From: an uncultured virus (IMG/VR IMGVR_UViG_3300017963_000250)
Taxonomy: Duplodnaviria > Heunggongvirae > Uroviricota > Caudoviricetes
Direction: 5' to 3' (one strand)
Length of the DNA: 20,000 nt
IMG/VR virus record: IMGVR_UViG_3300017963_000250
Position 1 is the first letter of the stretch; every line of letters begins with the position of its first letter. Shown here piece after piece: positions 2,517 through 15,791 of this stretch. The notes under the pieces are model-generated. The model was not told the DNA's origin and ran no database searches. It saw only the letters and a list, made by a program, of their open reading frames with translations. The translations under genes and the position numbers were made by a program.

Positions 2517-3604
2517 CAGTCGAAGTGTTTCTGTATCTCTATGGGGTATGGGAAATTCTTTACGAATTCCATAAGCAACCCGAACGTGGTGTCGGCGACA
2601 GTGCTCGCGATCTGGCGCGAGAAGAACACCCGCACCACGATCTTGTCGTACTTCTTGCCGAGAGAGTTCAGGTCGTTCTCGAACTGCTTCATCTCGTAGG
2701 CGACCATCTTGTTCTGCGCCTTGTCGAAAATGAAGGCGTTCACCCCGTCGTGAAACACGGTCATCACGGCGGCGGCGATGCCGGCACCGAAGTGTTTCTG
2801 TATCTCTATGGGGTATGGGAAAGTCTTTACGAATTCCATAAGCAACCCGAACGTGGTATCAGCGACGGTACTCGCGATCTGGCGCGAGAAAAACACCCGT
2901 ACCACGATCTTGTCGTACTTCTTGCCGAGGTAGTTCAAGTCGCCCTCGAATTGTTTCATCTCGTAGACAACCCTCTTATTCTGCGCCTTGTCGAAAATGA
3001 AGGCGTTCACCCCGTCGTGAAACACGGTCATCACGTAAAGCGGTTGTTTGCGCAGAAACCGGTTCCACGCCCACCACCCGACACCGGCAATGCCGGCACC
3101 GAGCGCGATCTTGGTCCAGCTAACGCCGAACGGGTTACGGCGGATCAACCTGTCCGCCTGCTTTTTGGGGTATCTTCTCCGTATCGCTTTTTTCATGTCA
3201 TCGTCCATCTTCCAGAACATCTGCCGGCGGTGCGATCTCAGCCAGGACTTCGCCTTCGACTTCGTCCACCGCTGGTACGGTTTCAACTGTATCGTCCGGC
3301 CCTGGTGCGTGATCGACCTACCGGTGGGGAACACCAGGCCCTGCACCCTGGTCGCGCGTCCGCCCTCGTACTTTGTCGACGGTTTTGCGCCGTACGGCGA
3401 CCCGAATCGGAGCAGGATCGGGCCGTGCTCCTTGTGCTTCAACCCTACATACTTGCTCCGGAACCACCGTTTGCCGGCGCGTTCCTGGAATATTTCCTTG
3501 TCCTTCAGTGTATAGTGTACCGAACGCGGCTTCTCGGCCCACCGGCCCTCATCGGCGAGCATATCCAACATCGCCGCCATACCGATCACCGGTTGCGGAG
3601 GCAT
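2516..3604 (-). CDS. Basic N-terminal domain + RRNP + TM helix + tandemly duplicated ~82-aa domain
   Basis: Coupled at both ends. K/R-rich N-terminal half, one TM segment, and MTVFHDG...IQKHF present twice. Confidence 0.85.
   Translation of the reverse strand: MPPQPVIGMAAMLDMLADEGRWAEKPRSVHYTLKDKEIFQERAGKRWFRSKYVGLKHKEHGPILLRFGSPYGAKPSTKYEGGRATRVQGLVFPTGRSITHQGRTIQLKPYQRWTKSKAKSWLRSHRRQMFWKMDDDMKKAIRRRYPKKQADRLIRRNPFGVSWTKIALGAGIAGVGWWAWNRFLRKQPLYVMTVFHDGVNAFIFDKAQNKRVVYEMKQFEGDLNYLGKKYDKIVVRVFFSRQIASTVADTTFGLLMEFVKTFPYPIEIQKHFGAGIAAAVMTVFHDGVNAFIFDKAQNKMVAYEMKQFENDLNSLGKKYDKIVVRVFFSRQIASTVADTTFGLLMEFVKNFPYPIEIQKHFD
2521..3035. repeat. Intragenic tandem duplication, ~248-bp copies (2521-2768 and 2788-3035; period 267 bp)
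   Basis: Alignment by eye gives about 18 mismatches, mostly synonymous, with 5 amino-acid changes. Confidence 0.95.
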
Positions 3605-4670: not shown

Positions 4671-5549
4671 TCAAGTTCTCCGGTAATATATATTGAACCC
4701 GGCCAAAGCGAAATACACGGTGTTGGACGACCCGGTGAGGTTTTGAAAACGTAGCTTGAATTGCGTCTTGCGTTGAAATATCTGCGGTTCGAAGTCGCGA
4801 TAGTATTCCGCGTTGCCGCCGATCATGCCGCTGTGTATCCACCCATTCATGAGTTCAAAACCGGTACCGACATTCGACACCCTGACCTTGTACGCGCCGG
4901 TACTGTACGTGAGCATCCGACGCAGGTAAAAATCGGCGTCACTTATGAAGGTGATATATGCCACGACCTCGGTCCCGACACCGGCACCGATCGTTATCCC
5001 GGAATCGGTCGTGTAGAAAAACGGACGTGCCATCCGGCTCGCCGGCGACAGTTCGTCAATGAGACTCCTGGCGTCGAAATAGTATCGCTGGCCTTCGAAC
5101 GCGAGCCTGACGTCATTCGGCGCGCCGGACAGATCCGCCAGGTCGACGACAAGTGACTGGGTCTCGTGTAAAAGCATCGGGATCGGAAGCTCGAACGGCC
5201 GTTGCCCGTTCCCGACAATGAGGCGGCTGTGGATCGGCCTGTTCGACATGTAGCGTTGATACTCGTTGTCGAAAATGAACAGGGTATAATCCTGCGAGGT
5301 CGCGATCCCCTTCAGGCGTCTCAGGTCTATCGCGCCGGCCTTGTCGTTACTCATGTTCCTCCTGGCGGTCCCGGCGGCAGGCACGGACACGACACTGTCG
5401 CCGGCCTGCTCGTCCCAGGTCAAGTCGTACGGGGTCGACGCGATCAAGACACTGTTCGGCTGTAGGCCACGAGTCTCGCTCTCTATGAGGGGCGCGAAAT
5501 TTGACAGTGACTCAAGATATATCGGCGTTATTTTGTTCTCTACCACCAT
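4671..5549 (-). CDS. Internally duplicated beta protein, putative double jelly-roll capsid protein
   Basis: The two halves align: LRRLKG/LRRMLT; YMSNRPIHSRLIVGNG/ELMNGWIHSGMIGGNA; LVVDLADLSGAPNDVRLAFEGQRYY/FKLRFQNLTGSSNTVYFALAGFNIY. GAGG RBS. The fold is inferred. Confidence 0.6.
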   Translation of the reverse strand: MVVENKITPIYLESLSNFAPLIESETRGLQPNSVLIASTPYDLTWDEQAGDSVVSVPAAGTARRNMSNDKAGAIDLRRLKGIATSQDYTLFIFDNEYQRYMSNRPIHSRLIVGNGQRPFELPIPMLLHETQSLVVDLADLSGAPNDVRLAFEGQRYYFDARSLIDELSPASRMARPFFYTTDSGITIGAGVGTEVVAYITFISDADFYLRRMLTYSTGAYKVRVSNVGTGFELMNGWIHSGMIGGNAEYYRDFEPQIFQRKTQFKLRFQNLTGSSNTVYFALAGFNIYYRRT

Positions 5550-6043: not shown

Positions 6044-6622
6044 TTAGGCGGGACGTCCCAGAATTCCGTGCAGGTAGCACCACAGGTCGATCGTCGCGGT
6101 GAAGGCGACGGTGTTTACCGTGGTCAGCGTGGCCTGGAAGTCTTGCTGGCTGGGGATATGGAGAGGCTCGCCTTCCAGATCCAGCGGCAGATACACCAGG
6201 GGGGACCCGATCCCGTTCTGGAGTTCCAGGATGGTGGTCGCGGTGACGGTGGTCGCGGCGACTCCAGTCAATCCGGCAGCGGCGGGGATCATGTGGTACA
6301 TGGTCCTGAGGTACGGTTTCGAGGAAAGCTTGAACTCGAAATACGCTTCGTTCATCAAGCGTTCCAGGTCCGCGACCGCGGTGCCCTGCTGCACGAAGAT
6401 ACTCACTCCGAACGCATCGAAAGTGTGCGGCGCGGCGAGCGATCCATCCGAGGTCATGTTCGTGTCGCGGAGGGTTCCGCCGAGAAAGGTCTTGAAGAAC
6501 GTCACCGACTGGGCCGTGCCGGCGGCGAGTTGTTTGCGATCGTAGATGGGCTCGCGGAGATATTCGAGTACCGCTCTTCCGGTATCGTACTTGGCTGCAC
6601 GTCTGTTTCCTGGCATTGCCAT
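6044..6622 (-). CDS. Putative major capsid protein, single jelly-roll type
   Basis: Strong AAAGGAG RBS, hairpins on both sides and mostly C/G-ending codons. Beta-rich with EPIYD...VTFF...TNM..DGSL..PHTF...LHIPSQQDFQATL...LWCYLHG. The function is inferred. Confidence 0.6.
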   Translation of the reverse strand: MAMPGNRRAAKYDTGRAVLEYLREPIYDRKQLAAGTAQSVTFFKTFLGGTLRDTNMTSDGSLAAPHTFDAFGVSIFVQQGTAVADLERLMNEAYFEFKLSSKPYLRTMYHMIPAAAGLTGVAATTVTATTILELQNGIGSPLVYLPLDLEGEPLHIPSQQDFQATLTTVNTVAFTATIDLWCYLHGILGRPA

Positions 6623-6687
6623 AATCTATACTCCTTTGCTTTACTGTTTTCCTTGCATGAAAAAAACGGTTCTTTCTTTGATAAACT

Positions 6688-6726
6688 GTGGGTGCGTGAA
6701 TAACTGGTCAGTTTTCACGCACCCAC
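6688..6726. repeat. REP-like palindrome in the leader of the capsid candidate
   Basis: GTGGGTGCGTGAA (6688-6700) pairs perfectly with TTCACGCACCCAC (6714-6726); an inner AACTG/CAGTT pair extends the stem. Confidence 0.75.
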
Positions 6727-6739
6727 GACGAAACTCTAT

Positions 6740-8329
6740 CTATCTACGTCCGTAATACCCGCGCGGCATCCACGGCGCGTATTTGTACCTTCTGGCGTTA
6801 CGGAGAAGTTCCTCGTCGAACTGCTGCATGTACCCGCCGTAGTAGGAACCGAGCGATGCGCCCCGACGCGGCAGCGTCAGGTAATCGCCCATACCCTGGT
6901 TTTTCTTGTCCGGGAGGGTGAGGTAGTCGCCCATGCTGTTCTTGTCCGGCAGGGTGAGGTAGTCGCCCATGCTGTTCCGACGCGGCAGGGTCAGGTAGTC
7001 GCCCATGTTGTTGTTCTGGCGCGGCAGGGTCAGGTAGTCGCCCATGTTGTTCCGGCGCGGCAGGGTCAGGTAATCGTCCATCCCGACCGGAGCGACGTAG
7101 GGGGTGCCCCACTTCTTGCGGATGCACCCGATCGCCTGTACCGTCTTCAGGACGCCGACGATCCCGGCACCGACCTGGAGCGCGAAGGTGTGCCTCGGAG
7201 CCAGCCCCGGCGAGAAGTAGTCGAGGGCCTTCCCGACACCATAGGAAAGGGCGGCGACGCTGCCCCAGGTGGTGGCGACCGGCACCATCTCGTCTACGAC
7301 ATGGAGCACGTTCGCTCTCTGGGTCACGTTCTTGCGGAGCATGTCGTTTACCCAGTAAGCGAGTTTGCCGCTCTGCTTCTTCACCCACTCGTGGCCGCTC
7401 ACGAAATGCACGGCGGCACCGGCGATCGCGCCCTCGCCACCGTAGACCGCCCATTCCTGCCAGGTGAGAGGCGGGTTGACATGAACAAGGCCAAGTCCAC
7501 TGCTTCTTATGGTCGACTTCAGTTTTCCGTAATCGCCACCGGCACCGGCAATGATACCTTCCGCGACCTCAGACGGCACCTTTTCCCGCAACCGTCTGGC
7601 GAGAAACGCGAATTTCTTCTCGCTTGTTTGGAGTTCGTTGATTGAGCGAACCTGCCTCGGAGTCAACAACTGCATGGTACCCGGTTCCGCTTCTCTGATG
7701 CGGGTGGGCCTGCGCCTTCCGGCGACCGCGCCGCGTTCTTTGCGCCGCGTCACTGCCGCCTTGCCCTTCTTCGTCTTCGGTTTCGGTTTCCCGTTCTTCG
7801 GTTTGGCTTTGCGCTTCCGTTTCGGGCGGTATCCGCGCGCGGCGGCGTAAAGGGCTTTTCTTTCGGCAACACTGAGCTTCGACCAGTCGGCGTACGGCCA
7901 CATGAAGGGTGACCCCTTGTAGTCCTTGCCGTCATATTTCCACGACCCGTCCCAGCCCATCTGCTTGGCGAAGGTCTTGGACACGGTGACGCCCTTGTGC
8001 CCCTTGAGGTACCGCTGGTACTTCTTCGAAGCTTTCGGGTAACCCTTGATCGACTTCTTGGTTCGCTTCCGCTTCGCGACGGCCTCGACAGCCGGTGGCG
8101 AGGGGATGTTCTTCATGATCTTGCGCGCGTCACGATACCGACCGGCCCGCGTGAGTCCGGGGTTCTCCATCGCGGAGATCCGTTGGGCGGTCTGCCACTG
8201 GGTGAGGCCGGGATACTTCCGCCCGGTCTTGCCAAACCGGTACGTTGCCCGGTCTCGCTTGTAGGTGCGTTTACCTTTCTTCTTACGACGACGCTTCCTT
8301 CTCGGCGGGTTCAACATAAGAACTGGCAT
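6740..8329 (-). CDS. Large basic core/membrane protein with NP motifs and C-terminal MGDYLTLP repeats
   Basis: The start is probably ATG 8329 (MPVLMLNPPRRK; AAGGAG RBS) rather than 8377. K/R-rich N-terminal half, hydrophobic helices after VNPP, then a repeat tail. Confidence 0.85.
   Translation of the reverse strand: MPVLMLNPPRRKRRRKKKGKRTYKRDRATYRFGKTGRKYPGLTQWQTAQRISAMENPGLTRAGRYRDARKIMKNIPSPPAVEAVAKRKRTKKSIKGYPKASKKYQRYLKGHKGVTVSKTFAKQMGWDGSWKYDGKDYKGSPFMWPYADWSKLSVAERKALYAAARGYRPKRKRKAKPKNGKPKPKTKKGKAAVTRRKERGAVAGRRRPTRIREAEPGTMQLLTPRQVRSINELQTSEKKFAFLARRLREKVPSEVAEGIIAGAGGDYGKLKSTIRSSGLGLVHVNPPLTWQEWAVYGGEGAIAGAAVHFVSGHEWVKKQSGKLAYWVNDMLRKNVTQRANVLHVVDEMVPVATTWGSVAALSYGVGKALDYFSPGLAPRHTFALQVGAGIVGVLKTVQAIGCIRKKWGTPYVAPVGMDDYLTLPRRNNMGDYLTLPRQNNNMGDYLTLPRRNSMGDYLTLPDKNSMGDYLTLPDKKNQGMGDYLTLPRRGASLGSYYGGYMQQFDEELLRNARRYKYAPWMPRGYYGRR
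6864..7081 (-). repeat. Six in-frame copies of M(G/D)DYLTLP with short R/K/N linkers
   Basis: GGCAGGGTCAGGTAGTCGCCCAT-like unit repeated six times on the + strand at 36-42 bp periods, with synonymous variation. Confidence 0.95.
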
Positions 8330-8361
8330 ACGTTTCTCCTTTGCTTTACTGTTCTTCCGTT

Positions 8362-8796
8362 TTATTTGTGTAACCAACCATCTTTTTTCATGATCGTTTC
8401 GCCCAGCATGTAGACGTTGCCCTCTGTGTCGCTCACCAGAAAGGTTTGGGGTGCCTTGTGGACATACTTGTATGGTTGCTTACGAGAGTTTCTCCTTGGG
8501 GTGTAATAGATATTCTCCATGACCCCGATGTGCGAGACTATCTTTACCTTCCGCTCATCGATACCCGGCGGGGTTTTTTGCAAAGTGATTTTGTCCGGCA
8601 AAGCGTGGTGTTGTCGCCAGAAATCTTTCACCGAGGCGTTGAATTCCTTGCGCGTCAGACTAATACCCGCCTTCCTCGCCAGACGCTGCGCGTCCAGCCA
8701 CAGGTTCTCGACCTCGTCCGACTTGAGGTCGAGCGGCGGGTTCACCCGGAGCAAAAGTGGGTTCTGTTTCCGCTTCGCCTTCTTCCGCTTCGCCAT
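8362..8796 (-). CDS. Basic protein with two NP motifs followed by a globular domain
   Basis: Abuts the upstream stop. MAKRKKAKRKQNPLLLRVNPP leader. Confidence 0.8.
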   Translation of the reverse strand: MAKRKKAKRKQNPLLLRVNPPLDLKSDEVENLWLDAQRLARKAGISLTRKEFNASVKDFWRQHHALPDKITLQKTPPGIDERKVKIVSHIGVMENIYYTPRRNSRKQPYKYVHKAPQTFLVSDTEGNVYMLGETIMKKDGWLHK

Positions 8797-10903: not shown

Positions 10904-11062
10904 ATTCACCGCAGAGACGCAGAGGACGCAGAGATAAGAGAAGGATAATTCATTACCCCCCGTCAAAGTTTTTGAAGGGGGTCTGGGGGAAACTTTTTCC
11001 AAAAAGTTTCCCCCAACTCTTCTCTTTCTTCCCTCTGCGCTCTCTGCGTCTCTGCGGTGAAT
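10904..11062. repeat. Nested palindromic (REP/MITE-like) element
   Basis: Outer arms 10904-10933 and 11033-11062 match at 28/30 (ATTCACCGCAGAGACGCAGAG...). Inner perfect 15-bp inverted repeat TGGGGGAAACTTTTT-CC-AAAAAGTTTCCCCCA at 10984-11015. Confidence 0.9.
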
Positions 11063-13006: not shown

Positions 13007-14458
13007 TTAAGTGTAAAGGACGAACTTTTTCTGGTCGACTAACCCCTGCCATGGCGACGACTGCCGGTGCGTGTCGACCGGGATCGGCACTTCGATATTC
13101 TCGCGCGTTTCCTGGAACGCTATCGAATGGTCGGCGCGCGCACGTCGTTGCTCGATCTCTCGTTTATATTCGAGTTGCTGTCTGAATTCCTCCGGAGAAA
13201 GGCCGGCCTTTTCGACGTATTCATACATGGCCTTGCGCGCGAAATCGACCGCCCACCGTTCGGTCGCGGCCTTGATCTCGCCCTTGTACCTAGATATCTC
13301 CGCTTCGAACCCCTCCTTCTGCGCGACCTTCTCGCGTTCGAGATCTTCCTTCAGTTTCTTCTGGTAGAGCGCAAGTTCAAACTCTGCCTCTTTCTGCTTG
13401 GTGAGCAGCATCTCCATTACCTCGATATCGGCCTGGAGCTTGTTGATCGCCTCACGCTGCGCGCGTTTCTCCAGCGCCACCCGCGCCTTTTGTGCCTTGA
13501 GTTGCTTCAGTATCTTCTTGCGTTTCTTCAGTTGATCGTGTACCTCTACCGCGCTCGTGGCCGCGTTCGCGACCGATACGGCGGACGAGACGAGAAGCGC
13601 CGCCGTGCTACCGCCGGTGATGACGGTCAGTATCCCCGACCCGATGACCGACCCGAGTTTCGCCAGGAACTTCCACTCTTCGGACGTCATCTTGAACGGG
13701 GAGTCTTCCTCGAACTGGGACACCCAACCGATCGGCGTCAGGAGCACCACCCCTTTCACGAGTACGTTGAGGAAATGGCCCAGGAACCCGTGCTTTTCTT
13801 TCCACCGGTTGAGTTCCTTCGCTATCCTGCGTTCGACCCGGTCTATCTCGGCCTTTATCCGTCTTATCGCGCGTTTGATCTCTTTTTTTATCCGCTTCCA
13901 TGTCTTCGAAAACCATCCGGAAAGTTCCTGGTATCCGCCATCAATATCCCATACGGCGAGACGGTGATAATCGGGCGGGAACCAACCGGGGAAAGAGCCC
14001 GGAGTAGCGGGATCATAGGATACCCAGCCGTTTTGGGTCTGGGCTTGCAGGAGGATGTGGGAATAGTTTGGGTTGCCTTTCTCGGCGGCCACGGTGACGA
14101 ATCTGACAGGAATTCCAAGTCCGAGCAACATCGCGGCCAGACTGGTACACATGTCGTCGCAATCGCCGTACCCCGTTTTCACGGTGATAGCAGCGGACTG
14201 CACCAGTTCCGCCGTGTAGGGGTCGCGCACGAATTTTATATTGTTTTTCACCCACCAGAAAAGCGTGTTCGCCATGTGGAGGTTGTCGCGCGGCGCTGAC
14301 TCATGTGTGAGCTTGCGCGCGATCGAGATGACGTCCCAATCGGTCGACCCCTTCTTCGACTCCTCGACGATCGCCTCTATGGTGACCTTCGTGCCGGGCA
14401 CCCCGTATGGGATCTCCTGAAGCGACACCTTGTTCGGTTTTACCATCTCATGTGGCAT
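13007..14458 (-). CDS. Transglutaminase-like (papain-fold) cysteine enzyme fused to amphipathic, hydrophobic and coiled-coil regions
   Basis: Transglutaminase-like core: WVKNNIKFVRDP, GDCDD (Cys), GIPVRFV, YSHILL (His), WVSYDPA (Asp). GAGGA RBS. Confidence 0.85.
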   Translation of the reverse strand: MPHEMVKPNKVSLQEIPYGVPGTKVTIEAIVEESKKGSTDWDVISIARKLTHESAPRDNLHMANTLFWWVKNNIKFVRDPYTAELVQSAAITVKTGYGDCDDMCTSLAAMLLGLGIPVRFVTVAAEKGNPNYSHILLQAQTQNGWVSYDPATPGSFPGWFPPDYHRLAVWDIDGGYQELSGWFSKTWKRIKKEIKRAIRRIKAEIDRVERRIAKELNRWKEKHGFLGHFLNVLVKGVVLLTPIGWVSQFEEDSPFKMTSEEWKFLAKLGSVIGSGILTVITGGSTAALLVSSAVSVANAATSAVEVHDQLKKRKKILKQLKAQKARVALEKRAQREAINKLQADIEVMEMLLTKQKEAEFELALYQKKLKEDLEREKVAQKEGFEAEISRYKGEIKAATERWAVDFARKAMYEYVEKAGLSPEEFRQQLEYKREIEQRRARADHSIAFQETRENIEVPIPVDTHRQSSPWQGLVDQKKFVLYT

Positions 14459-15403: not shown

Positions 15404-15625
15404 CTACCTTTTCTTTTTCGTCGCCTTCTTCGCGGTTTTCTTCTTCGCGGCAGGTTTCCTTGCGGTCGTTTTCTTTTTCGCGGCGGGCTTTTTCTTCGCG
15501 GTTTTCTTTTTGGCGGTCGTTTTCTTTTTGGCTTTTTTCTTGGGTTTCGCGCTTTCGAGCATACCGCCCAAAATGCGCAAAGCTTTCTTCCTTGCCGGGG
15601 TCATTCTCACCATTTCTTCTGCCAT
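15404..15625 (-). CDS. Histone H1-like Lys/Ala-rich DNA-binding protein
   Basis: AAAGGTG RBS. KKTTAKKKTAKKKPAAKKKTTARKPAAKKK repeats. First gene of the leftward operon. Confidence 0.8.
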   Translation of the reverse strand: MAEEMVRMTPARKKALRILGGMLESAKPKKKAKKKTTAKKKTAKKKPAAKKKTTARKPAAKKKTAKKATKKKR

Positions 15626-15638
15626 AGTTTTACACCTT

Positions 15639-15791
15639 TATCACAAAAGTTTGACTGATATATCACGAAAGTTTGACTGATCTATCATATCGTATATATA
15701 GTAAATTACGTAATTGCAGGCGTGTCAATTAAAAAAGTATGACTGATCAGTCATATTTATCTTGACAAAAAGTCAAATATCAATATAGAAT
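15639..15791. promoter_or_regulatory. Divergent promoter/operator region
   Basis: Two 22-bp tandem repeats (15639-15682) and a perfect palindrome TATGACTGATCAGTCATA (15738-15755). Back-to-back TTGACA boxes on the minus (15723-15728) and plus (15762-15767) strands; the plus box has TAGAAT at 15786-15791. Confidence 0.7.

Follow-up and report, generated by a model that had tools for sequence, protein, structure and literature searches.

A tandem DYLTLP motif array in a polybasic protein encoded beside capsid-protein candidates of an uncultured virus

The stretch of DNA investigated here, hereafter the window, comprises 20,000 nucleotides (nt) of an uncultured virus (IMG/VR record IMGVR_UViG_3300017963_000250). 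Its minus strand encodes a 529-amino-acid (aa) protein whose C-terminal tail carries six copies of the short motif M(D/G)DYLTLP in tandem. A preliminary description of this DNA had proposed that selection acts on the repeated peptide, which it read either as a multivalent capsid-binding or scaffolding motif or as a polyprotein cut at M-G into near-identical peptides. We describe the array, its conservation among relatives and the genes around it, and then consider what the tail may do.

The 529-aa protein and its motif array

The minus strand is a single open frame from 6740 to 8377, and the ATG at 8329 was taken as the likely start, giving 529 aa, because an AAGGAG ribosome-binding site lies 7-12 nt upstream of it. 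This AAGGAG is part of the string GTAAAGCAAAGGAG, and an identical string precedes the gene of a 192-aa protein. An identical 529-aa protein is on record, on contigs up to 93,198 nt. It is organised in three parts: a polybasic N-terminal half, three moderately hydrophobic blocks and the motif tail (Table 1).

The six units start at residues 417, 429, 442, 454, 466 and 480, being separated by 12, 13, 12, 12 and 14 residues, and their cores lie at 7058-7081, 7022-7045, 6983-7006, 6947-6970, 6911-6934 and 6869-6892. The linkers between them are polar or basic (RRNN, RQNNN, RRNS, DKNS and DKKNQG). Tandem Repeats Finder reports the array with a period of 36 (4.9 copies, score 210) and also with a period of 111 (score 287). 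The repeats had been placed at 6864-7081 in the preliminary description, which is right to within 5 nt, and DYLTLP is indeed invariant across the six units.

Codon variation among the units had been taken as a sign of selection on the peptide. It does exist, with 4 of the 8 core columns varying synonymously and one non-synonymously (G/D), and with 26 synonymous against 5 non-synonymous pairwise codon differences, but it is only modest: 74 of 100 same-residue comparisons share the codon, and the cores are 91% identical in DNA. The codons within this gene, considered by themselves, allow a recent duplication, gene conversion or a young or homogenised repeat.

The unitigs of two public DNA runs that contain this DNA, and that may come from the source sample, break inside the array. 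A 32-nt word within 6981-7051, present twice in the window, occurs in these runs at 2.5-2.6 times the single-copy depth, and the 67-nt piece between its copies at 1.25-1.4 times. Since the depth of this word is raised and the unitigs break there, the population may include a variant with seven units. No RNA run is among the public runs listed for this DNA.

Relatives and conservation of the motif

An exhaustive phmmer search of 1.84 billion representatives returned 12 proteins at E <= 0.001, the query included, and two of these are true relatives of the 529-aa protein: P0015 (509 aa) and the 114-aa fragment P0016. P0015, encoded at locus L005 (768-2294), has 33% identity with the window protein (E 5.8e-26), aligned over residues 60-526. 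It keeps six units of the form [LM][GS][DQ]YL[TS][VI]P in the same order, and the fragment keeps five. Nine further matches (P0017-P0025) cover the repeat stretch only; the four that were read (P0018, P0021, P0024 and P0025) are unrelated low-complexity tandem repeats and were set aside.

The L005 homologue is more informative than the codons of the window array. The same codon is shared in 37 of 82 same-residue comparisons within the L005 array and in 39 of 178 between L005 and the window gene. The residue that follows each P is R, R, R, D, D and R in both proteins, and because they match unit by unit, the six-unit array is older than the split between the two viruses, whose capsid proteins have 59% identity. 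Judged from these alignments, each unit of the peptide has been kept by purifying selection, and the selection that had been proposed is borne out: six units persist in L005 despite scrambled codons and an overall identity of 33%.

These data also bear on the idea that replication slippage gave rise to the repeats neutrally and that they have no function of their own. The 91% DNA identity of the window units and the assembly graphs that break in the array would suit such an origin, but six units in unchanged order, written in other codons, are present in a homologue with 33% identity overall, and in more distant counterparts the motif survives although the rest of the sequence does not align. 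We consider slippage scarcely credible as an explanation of the array.

A metagenome scan with the family of the 292-aa capsid candidate (see below) gave 16 loci, one of which, L004, is the same virus. The proteins in the middle of the gene cluster at L006, L008 and L019 were not detected by phmmer with P0002, P0015 or P0016. In a profile-profile comparison of window plus L005 against L006 plus L008, the motif stretch alone aligns (E 3.5e-4, probability 37%). We call these proteins positional counterparts, since phmmer was blank and only the motif stretch aligns. Their C-terminal tails carry 2-3 copies of [GS][DE][YW][LVM]T. A looser pattern, [GS][DEST][YFW][LVMI]T, has 21 matches in 101,397 aa of six-frame open reading frames (ORFs), and 17 of the 21 fall in the five tails. 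A partial gene at L009 contains SDFVT, SDMVT and GDIVT. The position before G or S is occupied by M, V, L or I, so the consensus can be written as hydrophobic-[GS]-[DE]-aromatic-[LVM]-T, with a [LVI]-P extension in the window's own clade.

The preliminary description would have been undermined by homologs that lack the motif; the motif is instead the best-conserved part of the relatives, in six copies in P0015, five in the P0016 fragment and 2-3 looser copies in L006, L008 and L019. As far as sequences can tell, it is the most durable part of a fast-evolving protein in which only a seven-residue N-terminal element is otherwise recognisable. Proteins that begin with M-x-V-L-x-[LM]-N-P-P number four in the 101,397 aa, all at the starts of counterparts, and L019 is without this element.

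Substitutions within the units speak against a polyprotein cut at M-G, as had been suggested: M is only a hydrophobic position in the relatives, the G after it alternates with S, and the protein has large non-repeat domains. A multi-core precursor of secreted or modified peptides, in the manner of ribosomally synthesised and post-translationally modified peptides (RiPPs), shares with the array the near-identical short units in tandem, but differs in size, domain content and gene neighbourhood. With its 529 aa, a polybasic domain of 250 aa and its hydrophobic blocks, the protein does not have the make-up of a short leader followed by cores, no peptide-modifying enzyme family is found among the 27 ORFs of the window, and the gene has a fixed position inside the capsid gene module. 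We regard a RiPP-like role as highly implausible.

Outside the tail, the three-part layout is maintained to a variable degree. The net charge per 50 aa in the N-terminal half of the window protein is +18, +11, +6, +20 and +8, which makes it core-like and agrees with the label of core protein that it had been given. This half is basic in 4 of 5 proteins; that of L006 is weakly basic, with about +20 over the first 200 aa and -6 thereafter. The hydrophobic blocks share alignment columns (about 371-391, 431-442 and 473-481) in all 5. Their 19-mer peaks on the Kyte-Doolittle scale lie at 0.95-1.52 for the window protein, and those of L005 at 1.24-1.71. The motif tail of the window protein is punctuated by Pro, Asn and Arg. 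After the array, APWM is common to the window protein, P0015 and P0016, and the L006 and L008 proteins end in G-Y-x-M-P-[VI].

Near the N-terminus, an element hydrophobic-[LM]-x-hydrophobic-N-P-[PSNQ] is shared by the 529-aa protein (8303-8323) and the 144-aa protein encoded upstream of it (8731-8754), and all 7 of its matches in the 101,397 aa fall in these two families. It may be a targeting or processing signal. Elsewhere in the window, the paralogous proteins of 362, 145 and 270 aa have R-x-N-P-[FG] just ahead of a membrane-like segment.

Searches for known families were negative. Neither Pfam nor PHROGs nor NCBIfam gave a match to the 529-aa protein. No PDB sequence matched its tail, a profile of the five proteins or a profile of the capsid protein, tblastn against GenBank phages found no match for the 292-aa or 529-aa protein, and IMG/VR contained no relative of the latter. 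A word-index homology search, with the single sequence and with a five-sequence profile, returned only the protein itself, lysine-rich words saturating the candidate list. Two-copy degenerate DNA patterns of the motif occur at 0 places in 2.9 million viral contigs. The one-copy pattern gave a single match, MGDYFTLP at L001, in an 84-aa frame that overlaps a longer ORF on the opposite strand, and was judged to be chance. The strings DYLTLP, GDYLTLP, DYLTVP and DYLTIP are absent from about 8.4 million full texts, and the matches listed for literature on related virus groups contain neither such a protein nor a large prokaryotic double-jelly-roll virus, which is not proof of absence. We regard the protein as a new family in an unstudied virus lineage; the principle of an internal protein tethered to the shell by short peptides is already known.

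Some resemblances were considered and discarded. The beta-clamp-binding motif, ITAM/YxxL and the sortase signal LPxTG look like the unit only in the form that it has in the window, and they need an L-P or a Y-x-x-L spacing that the relatives do not keep. A substrate for transglutaminase cross-linking, through a Q or K in the linker, was dropped as well; a Q comes after every unit in P0016 and after none in L005.

The capsid gene neighbourhood and the type of virus

Gene order is fixed: a 144-aa protein is followed by a protein of 380-530 aa and then by the 192-aa, (109-aa) and 292-aa families. Genes of the 529-aa type are flanked by structural genes in every locus seen. The features of this part of the window are given in Table 1.

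Table 1. Features in and around the 529-aa gene (window coordinates).
Feature	Positions	Strand	Basis or remark
144-aa protein, basic N-terminus, hydrophobic-x-hydrophobic-N-P element	8362..8796	-	homologues directly upstream of the counterpart in L005, L006, L008
AAGGAG ribosome-binding site of the 529-aa gene	8336..8341	-	
529-aa repeat-protein gene	6740..8329	-	stop 6740-6742
N-terminal element V-L-x-[LM]-N-P-P, residues 3-9	8303..8323	-	pattern count in six-frame ORFs
Polybasic N-terminal half, residues 1-250, net +63	7580..8329	-	charge count
Three Gly/Ala-rich moderately hydrophobic blocks, residues about 294-312, 341-369, 376-400	7130..7450	-	possible membrane segments
Array of six M(D/G)DYLTLP units	6869..7081	-	translation, Tandem Repeats Finder
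C-terminal tail after the array, with conserved ...APWMP...	6743..6868	-	comparison with relatives
Strong RNA hairpin, 17-bp, between the 529-aa stop and the 192-aa gene	6688..6726	-	folding against shuffles
192-aa single-jelly-roll protein, penton or minor capsid candidate	6044..6622	-	AF2 model (pLDDT 72), VIA
292-aa double-jelly-roll capsid candidate	4671..5549	-	AF2 model (pLDDT 87.8), beta-sandwiches 38-157 and 174-288

The predicted structure of the 292-aa protein is that of a double-jelly-roll capsid protein: the model contains two consecutive eight-stranded jelly rolls in one chain. Compared with 48,161 PDB representatives by VIA, it matches the major capsid protein (MCP) of STIV (Z 11.4, root-mean-square deviation 4.4, 227 residues aligned), followed by PRD1 P3 (Z 9.7), PM2 P2 (9.4), FLiP (8.3), PBCV-1 (8.2) and phiCjT23 (8.0). 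Cellular two-jelly-roll enzymes match it equally well (8ic8, Z 12.0; 4kq7, Z 11.2), and in the Foldseek ranking a peptidylglycine monooxygenase comes out on top, with the STIV MCP in 26th place (TM 0.41).

Adjacency of the repeat-protein gene to a capsid candidate holds on its immediate downstream side. The 192-aa neighbour models as a single jelly roll, and its best VIA matches are virus capsid chains, all of them middling: an HHIV-2 capsid chain (Z 8.3), SPV1 (7.7), SPMV (7.4) and HCIV-1 (7.1). Its homologues hold the same position in L005, L006, L008, L009 and L019. The hairpin that separates the two genes is very stable (region 6623-6745, minimum free energy -34.4 kcal/mol, z -5.2, 0 of 200 shuffles as stable). 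It was not scored as an intrinsic terminator and no T-run follows it; it may act in attenuation or in the stability of the transcript.

From the 27 ORFs of the window, five (194, 164, 229, 234 and 91 aa) end in a stretch that by eye resembles a membrane anchor. Only a transglutaminase core, in a 483-aa protein (13007-14458, E 9.8e-13), was above the curated Pfam cut-off, and PHROGs gave unnamed weak matches only. In the 483-aa protein, which may act as a protease, a lysin or a cross-linker, the Cys (GDCDD), His and Asp are in place by eye, and hydrophobic and coiled-coil stretches come after them. A distant clade encodes a 358-aa protein (L002:3690-4766) with a similar G-D-C-D-D string and no Pfam match.

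A protein with this fold is of interest for another explanation, in which the units would be processing sites and a virion protease would cut the tail at or near each motif during maturation, freeing peptides of about 12 residues or detaching the core protein from the shell. Adenovirus processes pVI, pVII and pX by its virion protease, adenain, whose cleavage consensus is (M/L/I)xGx^G or (M/L/I)xGG^x (^ marks the cut). The regular spacing, the eight conserved residues, about the length of a protease site, and the cysteine-protease fold encoded 6 kb away are all in keeping with processing. However, M is replaced by V, L or I in many units of the relatives and G alternates with S, which makes a strict cut between M and G unlikely; the window units read N-M-G-D-Y, which does not fit the adenain consensus; and neither an adenain-type protease family nor any Peptidase_C5-type match was found among the 27 ORFs. 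We therefore consider processing rather unlikely, even with a precedent in adenovirus, where shell binding and cleavage are united (10.1101/857581).

Beyond the left edge of the window by about 8 kb, the same virus encodes a 407-aa protein with a Pkinase domain (L004:13456-14679, E 2e-16). The invariant Thr, and the Tyr, of the units could then be phosphorylation sites by which a virus-encoded kinase switches the state of the tail. Thr is present in every unit of the five tails that matches the loose pattern, which itself requires Thr, and one L005 unit outside the pattern has Ser. Yet a kinase and a Thr by themselves make no link between the two, and no kinase family is present among the 70 ORFs of at least 100 aa in the 78-kb record of a distant relative, the one related record long enough to be informative here. 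Such a switch seems to us very unlikely.

An ATPase follows the structural genes in three loci (L004:10741-11508, L005:5858-6670 and L006:6689-7207), with an N-terminal Cys-rich stretch in L005 and L006. FtsK/HerA packaging ATPases are usual in the kingdom of double-jelly-roll viruses; for this protein only weak KaiC, AAA_25 and RadA/Sms matches were obtained, and no FtsK/HerA family was reported.

Some further observations concern the window outside the structural genes. A 267-nt tandem duplication (2521-3035, 1.9 copies, 92% alike) lies inside the 362-aa gene, which is paralogous to the adjoining 145-aa and 270-aa genes. At 15404-15756 we found a 73-aa Lys/Ala-rich protein with repeats of the A-K-K-K type, and upstream of it an AT-rich gap that contains a palindrome and three to four direct repeats of 22 nt; the area looks like a regulatory region heading the long block of minus-strand genes. 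A perfect 15-bp palindrome is found at 10984-11015, and the other assembly of the same virus, from which L004 derives, ends inside it, at about window position 11011, which we take as a probable break in the assembly and not as the end of the genome.

A Shine-Dalgarno-like tetramer precedes 15 of the 23 minus-strand genes, compared with 17% of random positions. The 78,468-nt record of the distant relative, rated complete by its source, has no Terminase_6N match, and its 70 ORFs include TnpB, AbiEii and a phage integrase and no tail, portal or HK97-capsid family. We place the host among prokaryotes because of the Shine-Dalgarno signals and the gene content of the relatives; the reference prokaryote genomes scanned with the 292-aa and 192-aa families contained no relative. 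Taken together, these features point to a prokaryotic double-jelly-roll virus, of which the structural gene block would be the morphogenesis module. Double-jelly-roll viruses of this kind carry an internal membrane. The window-type capsid protein occurs on contigs of 84,340 and 93,198 nt, which may not be viral throughout. Prokaryotic viruses with a double-jelly-roll capsid protein were reported to have roughly 7-18 kb (Yutin et al. 2018, PMC5894146), and 10-11 kb is given for tailless viruses of ANME-1 (PMC9894754). With contigs and records of 78-93 kb, several times this size, the present viruses may represent an undescribed lineage of large prokaryotic double-jelly-roll viruses.

Possible role of the motif tail

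We tentatively favour a reading in which the tail is a multivalent array of docking motifs and serves as a tether or as an assembly nucleator, joining a core protein associated with genome and membrane to the capsid shell. Docking is preferred because the motifs behave as short, portable units, conserved singly where nothing else aligns. The three-part layout and the fixed place within a capsid gene cluster are also in keeping with a tether. The array, its conservation, this layout and the gene context are observed; the membrane, the topology, the partner and its binding are inferred. According to this proposal, the polybasic half would bind and condense DNA, the three hydrophobic blocks would sit in or on the internal membrane, and the C-terminal tail would be a flexible string of six motifs, hydrophobic-[GS]-D-Y-L-T-[LVI]-P, about 12 residues apart. 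Each motif would bind a site that recurs across the inside of the capsid lattice, the major capsid protein being the most likely partner, and by avidity a single molecule could staple core and membrane to several shell subunits, during assembly, in the finished particle or in both. With an odd number of membrane passes, the N-terminal half and the tail would lie on opposite faces, the tail being directed toward the shell.

A possible parallel comes from a distant clade (L002, L011 and L013). The positional analogue of the 529-aa protein in these loci ends in GDYDDV and EDYDDV, and the single-jelly-roll protein has an N-terminal arm with DDYEEI and EDYDDL. The acidic G/E-D-Y-D-D pattern has 4 matches in 20,279 aa of 110 ORFs, two in the analogue and two in the single-jelly-roll protein. 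This distribution hints, by analogy, at the behaviour expected of a portable docking motif. The single-jelly-roll protein (L002:8796-9707, L011:227-1087, L013:59-1003) has a 100-aa N-terminal extension formed by acidic D-Y-D/E repeats and then a Lys-rich stretch.

The most serious rival is that the units dock a partner other than the shell, such as an assembly chaperone, the RecA/RadA-like ATPase, the transglutaminase-like enzyme or a host protein. Conservation and multivalency point to recognition by something and leave the partner unspecified, in L004, L005 and L006 the structural block has a RadA/KaiC-like ATPase after it, and the transglutaminase-core protein belongs to the same gene block. 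The constant location of the gene between structural genes argues for a structural partner, as does the similar motif carried by the single-jelly-roll protein itself in the distant clade, and we judge another partner unlikely, if clearly less so than processing.

Several observations weigh against tethering to the shell. The charge of the tail does not co-vary cleanly with that of the capsid protein: capsid proteins carry -2 and -1 where the tails have +5 and +9, -6 where the tails have 0 and -3, and +1 where the tail has -25. Copy number ranges from 2 to 6 across the relatives, which implies no set ratio to the shell subunits. The hydrophobicity of the three blocks is moderate, just the third peak of the window protein being above 1.2 in the Kyte-Doolittle scale, and the internal membrane is something we infer from the anchor-like ends of ORFs and the known biology of this virus kingdom. 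The capsid identities come from predicted models, with Z of 7-8 in the case of the 192-aa protein. Some homogenisation of the window units is likely because of their 91% DNA identity. Finally, the motif of the distant clade is only an analogy, since homology between its acidic-tail protein and the window protein was not demonstrable (probability 0.6%).

Tethering of internal proteins to a shell has several precedents. In protein J of phiX174, of about 37 aa, the N-terminal part is basic and lies on the DNA, and the C-terminal part, short and hydrophobic/aromatic, binds the inner surface of the coat protein. The logic of a two-ended tether is the same, but J belongs to a small ssDNA virus without membrane and uses a single site, compared with 529 aa and six sites here. 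In PRD1, a double-jelly-roll virus, P16 is a membrane-anchored minor capsid protein. The adenovirus proteins VII and VI lie under a double-jelly-roll shell, and VII is basic and condenses the genome; a DNA-bound protein held by a short peptide is what we propose for the window virus. In hexon monomers, VII and VI are reported to share one binding pocket (10.1101/857581). Unlike these proteins, with which it shares no sequence or family relation and whose pVII/pVI families it does not match, the 529-aa protein presents its peptide six times in tandem, at the C-terminus and after hydrophobic blocks; the window moreover lacks an adenain-type protease among its 27 ORFs, and its signals point to a prokaryotic host. 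A link from membrane to shell, as proposed here, is made in SGIV, a virus of the same capsid lineage, by the anchor protein VP88, with transmembrane regions in the inner membrane and an ectodomain contacting neighbouring capsid proteins (PMC10090177). The ectodomain of VP88 is a folded 'crown', with no motif array, and VP88 has no polybasic domain; homology of the 529-aa protein to solved chains was not detected.

The capsid-shell tether can be carried further, to a version that we find improbable and that would be the first genome-membrane-shell staple in a prokaryotic double-jelly-roll virus. The protein would then condense the DNA as adenovirus protein VII does, cross the membrane and plug six identical peptides into the bases of the shell, so that every jelly roll of a pseudo-hexameric capsomer would receive one and the 12-residue period would correspond to the distance between jelly rolls, in a lineage whose contigs and records are unusually large.

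The motif provides a usable signature for an unstudied lineage in which ordinary sequence similarity fails, and it draws attention to viruses with a double-jelly-roll capsid protein, prokaryote-type translation signals and almost no gene of a known family. The tether can be tested without culturing the virus, by means of peptides, such as synthetic MGDYLTLPRRNN, and recombinant capsid protein. To our knowledge, the coupling of genome, membrane and shell is known in detail only for a few cultured viruses with an internal membrane, each of which uses folded minor proteins. If the proposed tether is true, the window virus would achieve this coupling in another and very simple way, with short motifs conserved in tandem on a polybasic protein associated with the membrane.

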